Shown here: one piece after another, positions 3,403-48,392 of the stretch
Position numbering within the stretch: position 1 is the first letter of the stretch
Layout of the letters: each line of letters begins with the position of its first letter
Position numbers and translations under genes: made by a program
Source: an uncultured bacterium
GTDB taxonomy: Bacteria > Patescibacteriota > CPR2 > UBA1875 > CAIMLA01
DNA length: 64,000 bases
Reading direction: 5' to 3'
Assembly (NCBI GenBank): GCA_903842085.1
Contig: CAIMLA010000050.1
Coordinates: forward strand, 5,133 to 69,132
The notes under the pieces: model-generated
The model's database searches: none
What the model saw: only the letters and a program-made list of their open reading frames with translations
What the model was told of the DNA's origin: nothing

Positions 3403-4284
3403 TTATTTAATGATTACTTCTTCGAAAAGGGCATCGATCTTCCTGCGAGCATTCTTCTTATTATATTTACCGCTTATTATGTTCCATTGTACTTTAAATA
3501 TATCTTTAAATGAATTGATTGAGTCTTTAACCGGGTCAACGGTTGCTCCTTCTGCTACATCGTTCCACTCGACTGGTATTTCGATAGTTTTAAATTTGTA
3601 TTTTTGAGCGATGGCAAGATATTCGGTATCAAAGCCAAAGCCATAGACAACTTGAAGGCTCGCAATAAACTGTGCCACCGATGTTTTGTAAAGTTTAAAC
3701 CCACACCGTTGATCAACATAGCTTTGATTTAAAAGGACTGAAAAAGCCAGATTGCCACCCCGGCTGATAAATTGACGTAAACGACCTTGCTTGCCTTTAG
3801 CGGTATAATCTTTTGAGTGTCCAAAAATTAAAACTTCAAATAAGCTTTTAAGGCCATGAAATAAGGCCATGAAATAGTTTGGATGATATGGCCTTGGACT
3901 TTTTATATAGCGAGAGCCCATAATAATTTGATATTCATCTAGATATGGTAGTAGTTTAGTGATCTCTGAAATCTTTGTTGAGCTATCCGCATCCATAAAA
4001 ATAAGATATTTCCCCCGAGAAGCTAGGATACCATCTTGAATTGCCTGTCCCTTCCCTTTTCTGCTATCTTTCGGCTCGGTGTATTCAATATGCTCAAATT
4101 GCTTGGCGTATTTTCTCGCGATTTCAAGTGAGTGATCAGTACTATGCGAGTCCGCTAAGATAACCTGCGTTTTAAATTTTTGATGGCTAGTATATTCTAA
4201 AATTTGTTTTATCGTTTTGTCAAAGCGCTTCTCTTCATTAAGAAAAGGAATGATTATCGATAAGTAAATATTTTCTTCTGTCAT
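3403..4284 (-). CDS. GT2 polyprenol-phosphate glycosyltransferase (Dpm1/GtrB/ArnC-like)
   Basis: 293 aa. N-terminal GT-A fold (IIIPFLNEE ... ADSHSTDHS ... FMDADS DxD motif) with a C-terminal amphipathic/TM region. Confidence 0.75.
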   Translation of the reverse strand: MTEENIYLSIIIPFLNEEKRFDKTIKQILEYTSHQKFKTQVILADSHSTDHSLEIARKYAKQFEHIEYTEPKDSRKGKGQAIQDGILASRGKYLIFMDADSSTKISEITKLLPYLDEYQIIMGSRYIKSPRPYHPNYFMALFHGLKSLFEVLIFGHSKDYTAKGKQGRLRQFISRGGNLAFSVLLNQSYVDQRCGFKLYKTSVAQFIASLQVVYGFGFDTEYLAIAQKYKFKTIEIPVEWNDVAEGATVDPVKDSINSFKDIFKVQWNIISGKYNKKNARRKIDALFEEVIIK

Positions 4285-4296
4285 TAAGCTCCTTGT

Positions 4297-5511
4297 CTAT
4301 TTTTTATAAATGAATTTTTGATCAAATTGTTGCTGGATATAATCATTTTTACCCCAAGCATAAAAAAACTTTTCATAGTTGTAGTACACAGACAGAAAGA
4401 TAAAGAAAGATAAGATAATAGTCAAAACAAGCTTGGCGTTTTTATTTAAGGGAAAGGTCTTAAACCAAACAGTTAAGAGATAATCCAAGATCACTGAAGA
4501 GAGAATTAAGACAATCGGCACGATAAATATCAGACTGAAGGCATTCTGATTATTTAACAAAGCCAACGCTGTCATGGATAATAATAGAAAAGCAGTCAAG
4601 AAAAAGTACTTTCGTCTTTCTAGATGAGCCACAGCGTAAGCCAAACCACACAAAAACGTTATCGCGATAAACGGTCCAAGAATTGGCTCAAGGCCGATGG
4701 TTCCATAGCCAGCATAATCAGATTGATAAATTAACGAGCGCCAAATATCGCCAAAATTTATTAGATAATTACCGAATGATCCCGGGTTGAAGTAACTTAC
4801 AAGAGAATTGATGTTTTGCGGTAAATGATATAAGTAAGGAAGACTTATAATGATTGCAGAGAGAGCCATCAATAGATACTGTTTCCAGTAAGAATTTAAA
4901 ATCAGATGATTCTTCTGATAGAAGGAGACAAAAGATATGGCGATCACAATCGGGATTAAAACAAAGATTTGGTTAACATACAAAGACAAACCGACTAATG
5001 ACCCAAGCAATATAAACCAAGCGCTCTTTTTGCTCCGAAGAGCAAGTGTCGTCACTAGAAGTAAGGAGATAAGGGTGGTTGGGATTAATAAACTGGAGTT
5101 GATTGTTCGAGTCATAATTAAATCCAAGACATCAATTGAAATAAATAAAACACCCAGTAAGGCTATTTTTTTATTAAACCAATTCTTAATAAAAACATAA
5201 AATAAAATTATGGTTGAAACACTGATTAATATTTGAAAAATCTTAATTACAATAATGTTAAAGCTGGAAAGATAGCCTAGTCCAGCCACGAGGTAGAGAT
5301 AGATTAAATCAAAAAATTGATTAGACTTAGGAATCCAACCATTGCTAATGAGGGTTTTTGCTTCTTTAAGGATCTCAATCTCATTGAAAGACAGATTCTT
5401 TGGCATTGAAGCCAAATTATAGAAACGCAAAATTATTGCAAATAAAATGATTAACGAAAAAAATATTTGATTTTGGTATCTGTCTAATGATGTTCTTATT
5501 TTTTTTATCAT
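4297..5511 (-). CDS. Second GT-C/ArnT-like membrane glycosyltransferase
   Basis: Polytopic membrane protein with an RFYNL...NEIE motif resembling the ArnT/PMT N-terminal loop. The start is moved to the internal Met (MIKKIRTSL) so it no longer overlaps gtrA. The track ORF extends to 5580. Confidence 0.5.
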   Translation of the reverse strand: MIKKIRTSLDRYQNQIFFSLIILFAIILRFYNLASMPKNLSFNEIEILKEAKTLISNGWIPKSNQFFDLIYLYLVAGLGYLSSFNIIVIKIFQILISVSTIILFYVFIKNWFNKKIALLGVLFISIDVLDLIMTRTINSSLLIPTTLISLLLVTTLALRSKKSAWFILLGSLVGLSLYVNQIFVLIPIVIAISFVSFYQKNHLILNSYWKQYLLMALSAIIISLPYLYHLPQNINSLVSYFNPGSFGNYLINFGDIWRSLIYQSDYAGYGTIGLEPILGPFIAITFLCGLAYAVAHLERRKYFFLTAFLLLSMTALALLNNQNAFSLIFIVPIVLILSSVILDYLLTVWFKTFPLNKNAKLVLTIILSFFIFLSVYYNYEKFFYAWGKNDYIQQQFDQKFIYKK

Positions 5512-43837: not shown

Positions 43838-44284
43838 AATGGGAAAGCCCCAGCTCCATACCAGTCTCGACAGTGTCGAGGAAAGGATACGTTGCTGGGG
43901 CTTATGCCCTCGTTCGGTGTCCCGAGATGTTTATCATCTGCGAGACTGAGTGGGGCTTTATAGCTCCACGAGGGTGGGCCTCTCGGCCCTGGGTGCGGGG
44001 TGTCTCCCAAATTTCACTTTCGTGATCGAAGGAGAGCACCCGCGCGGCAATAGTCCGTTTTTTTGCCCCGGACTAGGGCAGATCTACTTCGGCATTCCGT
44101 TCCTTCCTGCCCTAACTCAGAGAGTAGGGCAATAGATGATGCCGAGATCCGCTCCAGCTCTGGTCACTGGTCACCAAAGACGAAGCTTGCTAGTCATCTT
44201 TCTCCTTTTAAAGAGAAAGATGATTTGAGATGTTAAGCCCCTGAGAGCCTTACCATCTTGAGGTCGCCACGCCTCATTTTTTTT
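43838..44284 (+). ncRNA. rnpB: GC-rich structured RNA, most likely RNase P RNA (rnpB); ends uncertain
   Basis: GC content jumps sharply. GGGAAAGCCCCAGCTCCATA (43841-43860) resembles CR-I GGAAAGUCCGGGCUCCAUA. GGGTGCGG (43991-43998) and GAGCACCCGCGCGGCAATAGTCCG (44034-44057) resemble CR-II/III GGGUGCGGUAAGAGCGCACCGCGCGGCUGGUAACAGUCCG. Intrinsic terminator TGAGGTCGCCACGCCTCA+T8 at 44259-44284. Confidence 0.5.
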
Positions 44285-44504
44285 CACCGGTTTAACGCAT
44301 CGCTTTTTTTAAATTGCGATACCGGTACCAGTATACTTCTCTACATTAGAAACCCGAGAAGTGGATGGCCCAAATTTTTCGGCCCAGGCTAAAAATATAT
44401 TGCCTGTTCTAACTCAGTTGCAATATATTAGCATATTAGTTATATATTGTCAAGTCTTTTATCGGAAGGTGAATTTCATAACTTTTAATTTGAGCCAAAC
44501 AGAG

Positions 44505-44766: not shown

Positions 44767-45456
44767 TTATATATTATCACGTATAATTACTTCTTTGACA
44801 TATTTTTGCATTATTTCCTTGATTGATGAAAGCTCTTCTTTAGTGAATGATGGCCTTGTTTTTAAGCTCTTATCAAGGGTTATTTCTGGCCGAAATCCTT
44901 GGATAGCGTAACGCTGTGATCCGGCAATCATCTTCCCTATTTCATCGAAATCTGATAGCTCATGATAGCTTGGAAGGACGGTTGTTCGGAATTCATAATC
45001 CAACCCACTTGATTTAATTATTCTTACACTTTCTTGAATAACTTTTTTATTCAAATACTTCGATATGGCCGGATATTCTTCTAAGGGTCCTTTGATGTCC
45101 ATAGCAATATAGTCAATCATCTTTTTATCTAATAACAATTGCAATCTCACTGGATTACTCCCATTGGTATCAAGCTTAACCTTAAATCCCATTTTTTTGA
45201 CTTTTTCTATAAAGAGCTCTAGCCCGTCTTGGATAATAGGCTCGCCTCCGGTAATAACTACCCCGTCGAGCTTGCCAACTCTTTTTGATAAATATTGATA
45301 AACTGTTTGTTCCTTTATTTGCCCTTTTTTTATTTCAATTAAGTCAGGGTTGTGGCAAAAGCCACATTGAAAATTGCAGCCTTGCGTGAAGATCACGGCT
45401 GCAATTTTGCCCGGGTAATCGATTAGTGAGGTTTTGACTAAACCTGATATTTCCAT
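44767..45456 (-). CDS. nrdG: Anaerobic ribonucleotide reductase activating protein (radical SAM)
   Basis: CNFQCGFCHN CxxxCxxC motif. Size and position after nrdD. Confidence 0.85.
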   Translation of the reverse strand: MEISGLVKTSLIDYPGKIAAVIFTQGCNFQCGFCHNPDLIEIKKGQIKEQTVYQYLSKRVGKLDGVVITGGEPIIQDGLELFIEKVKKMGFKVKLDTNGSNPVRLQLLLDKKMIDYIAMDIKGPLEEYPAISKYLNKKVIQESVRIIKSSGLDYEFRTTVLPSYHELSDFDEIGKMIAGSQRYAIQGFRPEITLDKSLKTRPSFTKEELSSIKEIMQKYVKEVIIRDNI

Positions 45457-45458
45457 CT

Positions 45459-45620
45459 TTAACAGTTACTTGAATCCAGATCAAAGGTAACCCGATCGCC
45501 ATATTCTGCTTTTTTGCCATCATTCCATTGGTTGATTGGCCTAATGTAGCCGACTACTCTTGAATAAACTTCACATTCTGTTCTTCGTCCTTCTAAATTT
45601 TCTCTTTCTTCTAAAGTCAT
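45459..45620 (-). CDS. Stand-alone glycyl-radical domain of anaerobic RNR (53 aa)
   Basis: MTLEERENLEGRRTECEVYSRVVGYIRPINQWNDGKKAEYGDRVTFDLDSSNC. It carries the NrdD C-terminal glycyl radical signature (SRVVGY...WN.GK..E..R). It has its own AGGAGG 4 nt upstream of the ATG. It is shorter than the ORF-track cutoff. Confidence 0.6.
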   Translation of the reverse strand: MTLEERENLEGRRTECEVYSRVVGYIRPINQWNDGKKAEYGDRVTFDLDSSNC

Positions 45621-45630
45621 TTTTCCTCCT

Positions 45631-47754
45631 TTAAACTTTTACTTTTTGTTTTATATTTAAATTAATTGATGTCTGGGGTAAATATCCAATTTCTTGGTCA
45701 CACACTGGGCAATATTTATGCTCTCCTTTTAGATAGCCGTGCTTCGGACAGACAGAGAAAGTCGGAGATAGGGTAAAATAAGGTAAATGATAATTCTCGG
45801 CTATTTTTTTAACAAGATTTTTGACTGAACTGATATTATCTAGCCTCTCTCCAATAAAGATATGCAAGACTGTTCCACCGGTATACATCGTTTGTAATCC
45901 ATCCTGTAGATCAAGGGCTTCAAAAATATCATCAGTATAATTGACTGGTAGTTGTGTCGAGTTGGTGTAATATGGGTTGGCTCCCATCCCCTTAAACGCT
46001 TCTTCATTTGCGACCAAGATATCTGAGTATTGCGCCTTGTCTCTTTTTGCAAATCTGGTTGTCGTCCCCTCTCCAGGGGTTGCTTCGAGGTTGTACATAT
46101 TCCCCGTCTCTTCTTGGTATTGACTCATTCTTTCTCTCATGTGATTCATCACTGAAATGGCAAAGGCATGGCCCTTCTTGGTCGTTATGTTTTCTTTGTC
46201 CTTATAGAAGTTCCTAATTGATTCATTCATCCCTAAAAGTCCGATGGTTGAAAAGTGATTAGCCCAATATCGACCAAATCTCTTTTTCACATCGGCTAGA
46301 TAGAATTTTGCAAAAGGATAGAGCCCTTGATCCATAAATCGCTCGATCACCTTTCTCTTGATTTCTAGTGACTCCTTGGCTAAATCCATCAGATGGTCTA
46401 ATCTTTCCAAATACTCTTTTTCATTTTTTGCCCCGTAACCAAGCCTGGCCATATTAATCGTCACGACCCCAATACTCCCCGTTAATGGATTTGATCCGAA
46501 TAAACCGCCACCTCTTTTTCTGAGCTCTCTGTTATCAAGTCTTAATCGACAGCACATACTCCTGGCATCATCTGGAGACATGTCAGAGTTAACAAAATTA
46601 GAAAAGTATGGAATGCCATACTTTGCTGTCATCTCCCACACAGAGTCAAGCTTCTCGTTGTCCCAACTAAAATCTTTTGTAATGTTATAAGTAGGGATTG
46701 GGAAAGAAAAGATTCTGCCATTAGCATCTCCTTCTAACATGACCTCAGCGAAGGCCTGGTTTATCATGTCCATCTCAGGCTGAAAATCTTTGTATTTCTC
46801 CTTTTGAAGCTTCCCTCCGATTATGACATTTTCCTCACCTAACTGCCCGGTTGGATTTAAGTCCATCGTGATGTTAGTGAAAGGTGTTTGAAACCCAACT
46901 CTGGTCGGAATATTCATGCCATAGACAAACTCTTGCATCGCTTGTTTTACCTGTTTATACTCCAACTCATCGTATCGTACAAACGGGGCGATTAAAGTGT
47001 CAAAATTTGAGAAAGCAACAGCCCCAGCACTTTCCCCCTGAACGGTGTACATGAAGTTTACGATCTGGTTCAACAAAGCCTTAAGATGTTTTGCTGGACG
47101 GCTCTGGATTTTTCCAGGAACCCCGCCAAAGCCACGCATTAAAAGATCCTTTAGGTCCCAGCCACAACAATAAACGGCAAGAAAGCCTAGATCATGAATA
47201 TGAAAGTCGGCATTTTCGTGAGCTTCCTTGATCTCAGTCGGGTATAATTTATTTAGCCAGTATTTTTCTGTTATTTTGTCCGAAATAAAGTTTCGTAATC
47301 CTTGCAAACTGTAACTCATGTTCGCATTCTCACGAACATACCAAGTCTCTTCTCCTATGTAATCATCCATCAGTGATTCTGTATCCACTAGCCTAATTGT
47401 TCTTAGTTCTTCATGCTGCTTCCGATAAACAATATAGGCCTTGGCCGTTTCTTCAAAGACTGAGTCCATCAAGACATGCTCAACAACGTTTTGAATGTTC
47501 TCAACTGCCGGTAAATGATCAGCGTCATATTGCTTTTGAAGATGTTCGACAACCTGCTTCGTTAATTTTTCAGCAATCGCTTGTCCAAACTCTCCCGTTG
47601 CTTCGCCGGCTTTGCATAAAGCCTTCGCAATCCGACTATCATCGAATTTAGCTATCCTACCATCTCTTTTGATGACCTTATTAAACGGTTTCTTTTTCAG
47701 ATCCTTCTTTGATAAGGACAATTGTTTTTGCTGAAATTCACTTTTTACTACCAT
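45631..47754 (-). CDS. nrdD: Anaerobic ribonucleoside-triphosphate reductase (class III), large subunit lacking the glycyl-radical motif
   Basis: N-terminal ATP-cone (KRDGRIAKFDDSRIAKAL) and class III RNR core. A C-terminal zinc ribbon (CPKH...CPVC) is followed by the stop. Confidence 0.9.
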   Translation of the reverse strand: MVVKSEFQQKQLSLSKKDLKKKPFNKVIKRDGRIAKFDDSRIAKALCKAGEATGEFGQAIAEKLTKQVVEHLQKQYDADHLPAVENIQNVVEHVLMDSVFEETAKAYIVYRKQHEELRTIRLVDTESLMDDYIGEETWYVRENANMSYSLQGLRNFISDKITEKYWLNKLYPTEIKEAHENADFHIHDLGFLAVYCCGWDLKDLLMRGFGGVPGKIQSRPAKHLKALLNQIVNFMYTVQGESAGAVAFSNFDTLIAPFVRYDELEYKQVKQAMQEFVYGMNIPTRVGFQTPFTNITMDLNPTGQLGEENVIIGGKLQKEKYKDFQPEMDMINQAFAEVMLEGDANGRIFSFPIPTYNITKDFSWDNEKLDSVWEMTAKYGIPYFSNFVNSDMSPDDARSMCCRLRLDNRELRKRGGGLFGSNPLTGSIGVVTINMARLGYGAKNEKEYLERLDHLMDLAKESLEIKRKVIERFMDQGLYPFAKFYLADVKKRFGRYWANHFSTIGLLGMNESIRNFYKDKENITTKKGHAFAISVMNHMRERMSQYQEETGNMYNLEATPGEGTTTRFAKRDKAQYSDILVANEEAFKGMGANPYYTNSTQLPVNYTDDIFEALDLQDGLQTMYTGGTVLHIFIGERLDNISSVKNLVKKIAENYHLPYFTLSPTFSVCPKHGYLKGEHKYCPVCDQEIGYLPQTSINLNIKQKVKV

Positions 47755-47790: not shown

Positions 47791-48246
47791 TTATTTAACC
47801 TTTTCTAGCTTTTCCACTTCTTCTTTGAAGTTTGATAAATCATCAAATGATTTGTAGACGCTGGCAAATCTGAGGTAGGCGACTTCATCGACCGTTCTCA
47901 GTTTCTGTAATATGTAGTCTCCAATTTCTTTACTATTTACTTCTTTCTCGCCTTGCGAATATATCTCTTTTTCAATTTCATCTAATATCTTCTCAACCGC
48001 TGGCTCGGTGATGGGCCTTTTTTCTAGTGCTTTTAAGACTCCTTTTGCCATCTTCTCCCTAGAATAAACTTCTTTTCTGCCATCCTTTTTGATTACCGCC
48101 ATATTTAGGACCTCTGGCCTTTCATAGGTCGTAAACCTAAACCCACAGTCGATGCACTCGCGTCTTCGTCTAATCGCTTCTTCTCCCTCGATATCTCTTT
48201 TCTCTAACACTTTTAGGTTTTCTTTGTGACAATTCGGACAATTCAC
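47791..48246 (-). CDS. nrdR: Transcriptional repressor NrdR
   Basis: N-terminal zinc ribbon (CPNC...CIDC) plus ATP-cone. Confidence 0.9.
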   Translation of the reverse strand: MNCPNCHKENLKVLEKRDIEGEEAIRRRRECIDCGFRFTTYERPEVLNMAVIKKDGRKEVYSREKMAKGVLKALEKRPITEPAVEKILDEIEKEIYSQGEKEVNSKEIGDYILQKLRTVDEVAYLRFASVYKSFDDLSNFKEEVEKLEKVK

Positions 48247-48268: not shown

Positions 48269-48320
48269 ACACAACATATAGTGTATTAAACATATAGTAT
48301 GACGCTATATGTAAGGTGTC
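48269..48320 (-). promoter_or_regulatory. Candidate NrdR boxes in the nrdR promoter region
   Basis: ACACAACATATAGTGT (48269-48284) matches the NrdR-box consensus acaCwAtATaTwGtgt. A second, degenerate palindromic element CATATAGtatgacgCTATATGTAAGGTGT lies at 48291-48319. Confidence 0.5.
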
Positions 48321-48392
48321 AACCATTTTCTTTTCCACACTTTTTTTGCTTTTTAAATCAACAAAATTTTACTTTTCCACATTACATATTCA

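Follow-up and report, generated by a model that had tools for sequence, protein, structure and literature searches.

The nrdR-nrdD-nrdG region analysed here lies in a 64,000-nucleotide (nt) stretch of DNA from an uncultured bacterium of the Patescibacteriota (GTDB lineage CPR2; UBA1875; CAIMLA01), taken from contig CAIMLA010000050.1 of assembly GCA_903842085.1 (positions 5,133 to 69,132, forward strand). This whole stretch is referred to as the window. NrdD is the large subunit of class III (anaerobic) ribonucleotide reductase (RNR), and in the window its coding sequence is divided between a core gene that lacks the glycyl-radical motif and a separate open reading frame (ORF) of 53 amino acids (aa) that carries it. 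The genes stand on the minus strand in the order nrdR, nrdD core, 53-aa ORF, nrdG, and form a compact operon. Both this order and all the coordinates given in an earlier reading of the window (the first-pass annotation) were confirmed by our analysis. The features of the region are as follows.

48294..48322, minus strand: promoter-like site TTGACA-17-TACTAT upstream of nrdR (scan against the consensus, 10 of 12 positions matched; no more than a pattern match)
48269..48284, no strand assigned: NrdR-box-like palindrome ACACTATATGTTGTGT, with one mismatch to ACACWATATWTWGTGT, which we take to be the NrdR-box consensus; the sole one-mismatch match within the window
47791..48246, minus strand: nrdR repressor gene, 151 aa (Pfam Zn_ribbon_NrdR, E = 6e-18; ATP-cone, E = 2e-20)
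45631..47754, minus strand: nrdD core gene, 707 aa, without glycyl-radical motif (Pfam NRDD 1-529 of 562, E = 1e-184)
47407..47679, minus strand: ATP-cone, core residues 26-116 (Pfam PF03477, E = 2e-22)
46546..46557, minus strand: finger-loop motif MCCR at core residues 400-403, where the thiyl-radical cysteine is located (read from the sequence)
45700..45750, minus strand: zinc ribbon C669-x2-H672 ... C682-x2-C685, kept on the core (read from the sequence)
45682..45699, minus strand: post-ribbon motif DQEIGY, core residues 686-691, a conserved signature of most split cores
45631..45681, minus strand: variable core tail, residues 692-707, with the TAA stop (homologue comparison)
45621..45630, minus strand: intergenic spacer AGGAGGAAAA, containing the Shine-Dalgarno site of the small gene (read from the sequence)
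45459..45620, minus strand: small gene, 53 aa, with the glycyl-radical loop and C-terminal tail of NrdD (Pfam NRDD 529-562 of 562, E = 6e-10)
45549..45551, minus strand: codon of Gly24 in RVVGY, the predicted radical glycine (motif position aligned to NrdD profiles)
44767..45456, minus strand: nrdG, radical-SAM activase, 229 aa (TIGR02495 NrdG2, E = 2e-63)

Analysis of the two pieces with family profiles revealed that their matches adjoin at NRDD position 529, and they are thus exactly complementary parts of one family profile. With NCBIfam PRK08270 the core matches positions 3-652 of 684 (1057 bits against a cut-off of 548) and the small ORF positions 649-683. This profile search, which the first-pass annotation had called for, bore out its claims that NrdD is split and that the small ORF holds the canonical NrdD glycyl-radical loop. 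The translation of the small ORF is MTLEERENLEGRRTECEVYSRVVGYIRPINQWNDGKKAEYGDRVTFDLDSSNC, in which the radical-glycine loop CEVYSRVVGYIRP..WNDGK is joined to the C-terminal tail. The core consists of an ATP-cone, the alpha/beta barrel, the MCCR finger loop and the zinc ribbon. M400-C401-C402-R403 is invariant in our alignments A4 and A5, and the Cys/His columns of the ribbon are invariant in A2, A4 and A5. The MCCR/MGCR class of finger-loop motif has been described previously (PMC9669993). Foldseek comparison of an AlphaFold2 model returned only class III RNRs as best matches in the PDB, with target-normalised TM-scores of up to 0.74.

All the parts of the canonical single-chain NrdD and its activase NrdG, as known from T4, E. 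coli, T. maritima and P. copri (PRK08270-type), are present: ATP-cone, barrel, MCCR loop, C-x2-H...C-x2-C ribbon, RVVGY loop, NrdG2 and NrdR control. Profile and fold, the finger-loop cysteine motif and the adjacent activase all place the locus in the class III family. What differs is that the ribbon and the RVxGY loop, which family members carry in one polypeptide, are found on the core and on the 53-aa ORF respectively, the chain being broken between them by a stop codon, a ribosome-binding site and a new start. The structures of P. copri NrdD define the glycyl radical domain as the Zn site, the Gly loop and the tail (PMC11226230), and by that definition the break lies inside the domain. The idea of a detached glycyl-radical domain thus holds for the Gly loop and tail, which are separate, but not for the zinc ribbon part, which remains with the core.

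At the junction, the core ends in ...CPVCDQEIGYLPQTSINLNIKQKVKV-TAA, with the stop codon at 45633-45631. It is followed by AGGAGG at 45630-45625, then aaaa and the small-ORF ATG at 45620, so the spacer after the TAA measures 10 nt and the small ORF does have its own ribosome-binding site, as had been proposed. The ATG had also been described as in frame. It lies 13 nt from the T of the core TAA and is therefore in the +1 frame, which is itself closed upstream by another TAA at 45641-45639. The small-ORF stop precedes the nrdG ATG (45456) by 2 nt.

The exact small protein was found, with identical gene calls, on four further contigs from independent metagenome assemblies, which makes five assemblies in all. 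Two of the four contigs are strain variants with one synonymous change and a spacer of 9 nt instead of 10 nt. This single nucleotide alters the relative frame of the two ORFs while the TAA, the Shine-Dalgarno site and the ATG are retained; such a harmless indel between strains indicates that the spacer is non-coding. All 120 of the nearest core homologues (62-100% identity) stop soon after CPxC and lack the Gly motif. A search with the small-ORF protein matched 385 clusters, and the best 120 of these 385 are all stand-alone proteins of 41-79 aa, whose named sources are Patescibacteria/Parcubacteria bacteria and archaea, one of them a member of the Diapherotrites. Across 37 stand-alone homologues 15 columns are invariant. 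The small ORF is under strong purifying selection: comparison with the strain variant gave a pN of 0 and a pS of 0.15, and two other lineages gave dN/dS values of 0.05-0.09. These gene comparisons indicate that the split is no error but a true fission of the gene, which this bacterium shares with hundreds of other tiny-celled bacteria and archaea. The search for the same split in relatives, suggested in the first-pass annotation, was thus successful; the arrangement is widespread and interconverts with the fused form, and is not peculiar to this genome.

The junction was then compared across lineages, using the contexts of the encoding contigs and a scan of one genome per GTDB species, from which 80 loci were retained, some 25 of these being split. 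Between the core stop and the small start there is either an overlap (20, 4 or 1 nt), no spacing at all, or a gap of 5-355 nt. All three relative frames and all three stop codons (TAA, TAG and TGA) were seen, and in locus L076 the order is core, nrdG, small gene. Of the 29 split loci scanned, 16 have a Shine-Dalgarno-like motif ahead of the small ORF, and in about 10 this motif is strong (five bases, GGAGG-type). In Thermoplasmata it is encoded in the last core codons, either as ..ARR* (GCT AGG AGG TAG) or, in a second form, as ..KGGN* (AAA GGA GGT AAT TAA), with GTG directly after. This variety excludes a conserved recoding signal and points to selection for independent initiation of the small gene.

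The protein sequences on the two sides of the break are conserved to different extents. Split cores read CPxC-D-E-E-I-G-Y-x-E and then run into a variable tail, the whole stretch after CxxC being 8-69 aa; beyond DEEIGYxE no conservation was found among homologues. At the DQEIGY positions of the window, the 119 closest split cores have D in all 119, E in 114, I in 106, G in 116 and Y in 113. The small proteins start 4-40 residues ahead of the conserved R-T-x-C-EVYSR. No consistent pattern of charge complementarity was found between core tails and small N-termini.

Several individual junctions are recorded here as observations in their own right. L008 and L009 (junction at about 4975-5004) have identical small proteins. 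In one of the two the TAG of the core is lost, and the core frame continues across the Shine-Dalgarno site as far as a TGA that overlaps the ATG (715 vs 723 aa), which indicates that the core tail is free to vary. In L010/L023 (4646-5000) the 355-nt spacer between core and small gene is AT-rich, with TTGAAAAT-type repeats and a 53-aa hydrophobic ORF. In L018 (Micrarchaeota, about 3850-4010) some 38 nt of the small-ORF 5' end are directly duplicated around a GC-rich insert of roughly 150 nt; a truncated pseudo-start is left, and the junction resembles a small insertion with target duplication. The core tails of L013, L093 and the window, which are distant lineages, have in common a K-V-K-V-like ending in addition to the DEEIGY motif. 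Transfer of a junction cassette or a constraint from the embedded ribosome-binding site might account for this.

Taken together, we consider it probable (about 0.82) that the locus encodes a class III RNR made of two genes, which arose by fission inside the C-terminal domain, and that the 53-aa peptide is its obligate radical-carrying subunit. From the genes we infer that the two pieces are separately translated and that they assemble, are activated and function as one enzyme. The 53-aa product would be translated from its own start in the nrdR-nrdD-small-nrdG operon and would supply the beta-hairpin with Gly24 and the C-terminal tail. It would bind the core non-covalently, its Gly loop entering the barrel opposite the finger-loop cysteines, like the attached loop in solved NrdD structures. 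NrdG would abstract the Gly hydrogen from the free or loosely bound peptide; the radical would then pass to the Cys, and catalysis would proceed as in single-chain NrdD. Previous studies have indicated that the buried Gly must exit the barrel for activation (PMC4493059) and that the C-terminal domain of NrdD has high mobility (PMC11226230). It is therefore plausible that the enzyme tolerates a break in the short linker that follows the ribbon.

Some limits apply to this reading. The zinc site of E. coli and T4 NrdD is required for radical formation, and it is uncertain, given this requirement, whether a free peptide without the ribbon could be activated. In an AlphaFold2 model of a pseudo-fusion of core and peptide the core was confident, but residues 695-760 had a pLDDT below 50; the naturally fused control P0442, modelled with the same kind of alignment, was alike, being low in the same region (residues 676-713), and the low scores therefore count neither for nor against docking of the peptide. 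The count of Gly motifs covers the loci, and another complete RNR may be encoded elsewhere in these genomes.

Of the other explanations, the one that survives best, although we regard it as unlikely, is that the small protein is a true spare part: a complete NrdD would be encoded elsewhere in the genome, and the peptide would only rescue O2-cleaved enzyme, as GrcA does. The first-pass annotation had compared the peptide with GrcA/YfiD. Like GrcA/YfiD and T4 Y06I, it is a small separate protein with a radical glycine, which must dock into a large barrel protein. It is also encoded beside an activase. The short contig L011 (381-540) carries a small gene identical to that of L010/L023, preceded by a NifU gene instead of a core, as might be expected of a spare. 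However, GrcA is a PFL-type (PF01228) extra copy that stands beside a complete PFL and acts after O2 cleavage, whereas the peptide here is NrdD-type and its partner never has a loop of its own. The small ORF has no match to PF01228, NRDD being its sole Pfam family at E up to 1, and so the likeness does not extend to membership. The adjacent core lacks the Gly loop in all 120 close homologues, no second Gly-radical copy was found in the window or in any locus examined, and fused and split forms substitute for each other at the same syntenic position. A single Gly motif per locus suggests an obligate subunit, not a GrcA-like spare.

It is very improbable that recoding, by a programmed frameshift or stop readthrough, yields one fused polypeptide. 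In favour of recoding, the two ORFs of the window are 13 nt apart (+1) across a purine-rich spacer, and in the strain variants the two share one frame, interrupted by a single TAA. But neither the frame relation nor the stop codon nor the spacer is conserved among the junctions described above, which range from a 20-nt overlap to a 355-nt gap and in L076 have nrdG between the two genes. The Shine-Dalgarno site, moreover, is downstream of the stop, where it is placed for re-initiation and not for an RF2-type shift.

Joining of the two products after translation, by a split intein or another ligase, is hardly more credible. In its favour, inteins are unusually frequent in the NrdD genes of these taxa, and an invariant Cys stands near the N-terminus of the small protein. 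The same Cys is equally present in fused homologues, as CEVYSR, and intein halves would need more length and more conservation than the core tails and the small N-termini offer. No intein or Hint domain was matched by either ORF in the Pfam search. Independently of this, intein invasion was found to be heavy in the NrdD genes of CPR, DPANN and Thermoplasmata, with representatives of up to 1879 aa that show 2-4 matched stretches and LAGLIDADG/intein Pfam domains; the loci noted for this are L017, L019, L021, L022, L035, L047, L071, L072, L081 and L093.

Least probable of all is a sequencing or assembly error, or a decaying pseudogene, that hides a continuous nrdD of about 765 aa: the junction does lie in an A-rich stretch, where a 1-nt indel within 45634-45638 would join both frames, but it is identical, or polymorphic and still split, in five assemblies, hundreds of diverged lineages preserve the two ORFs unbroken, whatever the geometry of the junction, strong purifying selection acts on the small ORF, and a fused reading needs removal of the stop and, in most lineages, a frameshift too. 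The earlier argument against a simple nonsense mutation or assembly error was therefore upheld. One broken gene that would fit error or decay was met in L063 (Syntrophomonas palmitatica JCM 14374, a cultured organism), whose nrdD is in several ORFs, broken elsewhere than at the conserved split site; this is probably a draft sequencing error or a pseudogene.

Comparison of split and fused relatives bears on the history of the two-gene form. Fused relatives have CPxC-x(2-9)-CEVYSRVVGY, that is, a linker of 2-9 residues. The fused genes of L027 and L081 have long linkers, and these look like pre-fission or re-fused forms. The core of L013, from a Thermoplasmatales metagenome-assembled genome, shares 85% identity with fused Thermoplasmata genes, against only 57-66% with the other split genes. 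Of the 120 Thermoplasmata relatives (83-100% identity) that a search with this core returned, 60 are split and 60 fused. The post-ribbon motif D[EK][EK][IL]G[YI] is present in all 60 split and in none of the 60 fused relatives, which all have a short ..[NK]K.T.C linker. The split state is tightly linked with the DEEIGY motif. A neighbour-joining tree of the cores alone, and all 40 of its bootstrap replicates, required at least 8 changes between the split and fused states, against about 42 with shuffled labels. A single origin of the split was rejected on the L013 identities and on these changes in every bootstrap tree.

The clearest pair is L093 (split) and L094 (fused), in which all neighbouring genes are syntenic, the DNA is about 80% identical, and one clean indel of about 65 nt lies at the junction. 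A recombination tract at this junction was rejected, since the flanking identity shows no drop beside the indel. Judged from these sequences, the split either arose more than once or is mobile, through repeated fission, re-fusion or recombination of a small fission cassette. The frequent switching among near-identical relatives suggests that the split and fused forms are functionally equivalent and may be interchangeable. An enlarged or different activase in split systems was also considered and rejected, the median NrdG length being 232 aa at split loci and 229 aa at fused loci. A phage origin was likewise rejected: only three weak phage matches were found, two in annotated anaerobic-RNR genes and one in an unannotated record.

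As to a benefit of the split, cheap replacement of an O2-cleaved 6-kDa piece is possible as a hypothesis. A more far-reaching proposal, which we consider speculative and rather doubtful, is that the peptide of about 50 aa is a diffusible, exchangeable radical cartridge. NrdG would charge it off the enzyme, and it would then dock into the core, to be exchanged once O2 has cleaved it or set free when dATP makes the C-terminal region looser. A compact fission cassette (DEEIGY tail, embedded Shine-Dalgarno site and new start) would then spread among nrdD genes by recombination because it is advantageous.

Division of an RNR between adjacent genes has a precedent in NrdJa/NrdJb of Pseudomonas aeruginosa and other Proteobacteria, a class II RNR split in two adjacent genes whose products are both needed (PMC4520616). 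As in that system, the catalytic chain is distributed over two adjacent genes of an operon, with a C-terminal functional module on the second product. Unlike the enzyme described here, the class II enzyme uses adenosylcobalamin, and NrdJb is 229 aa long and carries the redox cysteine tail, not the radical site. According to a 2026 review, formate lyases are the sole class of glycyl-radical enzyme with known spare-part proteins (PMC13450708). If our reading is true, the small protein would be the first stand-alone carrier of a radical glycine to come from any class other than the formate lyases. We found no description of a split NrdD in full-text literature searches, in which subscription journals are thinly covered, so an earlier mention is possible.

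Class III RNR has hitherto been regarded as one catalytic chain that contains its own glycyl radical, a picture that a natural two-piece version would alter. Such a version would mean that a radical loop not covalently joined to the barrel is able to function, or at least is maintained by selection. It would also offer a minimal natural substrate for studying the access of the activase to a glycine that the resting enzyme keeps buried. The near-identical split and fused Thermoplasmata genes (60:60) would serve as natural controls for experiments. Automatic annotation labels such peptides hypothetical or fragmentary. One RNR phylogeny applied length filters of 400-1100 aa (PMC9531940), by which peptides this short would be discarded.

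Apart from this operon, an ORF-free, GC-rich island (50-57% against about 37%) was observed on the minus strand at 43850-44410 of the window, after a promoter-like TTGACA-17-TAATAT (44453-44425). No Rfam family matches it at E up to 1, neither a tRNA nor a tmRNA was found in it, and it is missing from the syntenic place in the relative L008. Its minimum free energy is −230.6 kcal/mol, against −170.6 kcal/mol for shuffled sequences (z = −9.0), and it is a candidate for a large structured RNA.

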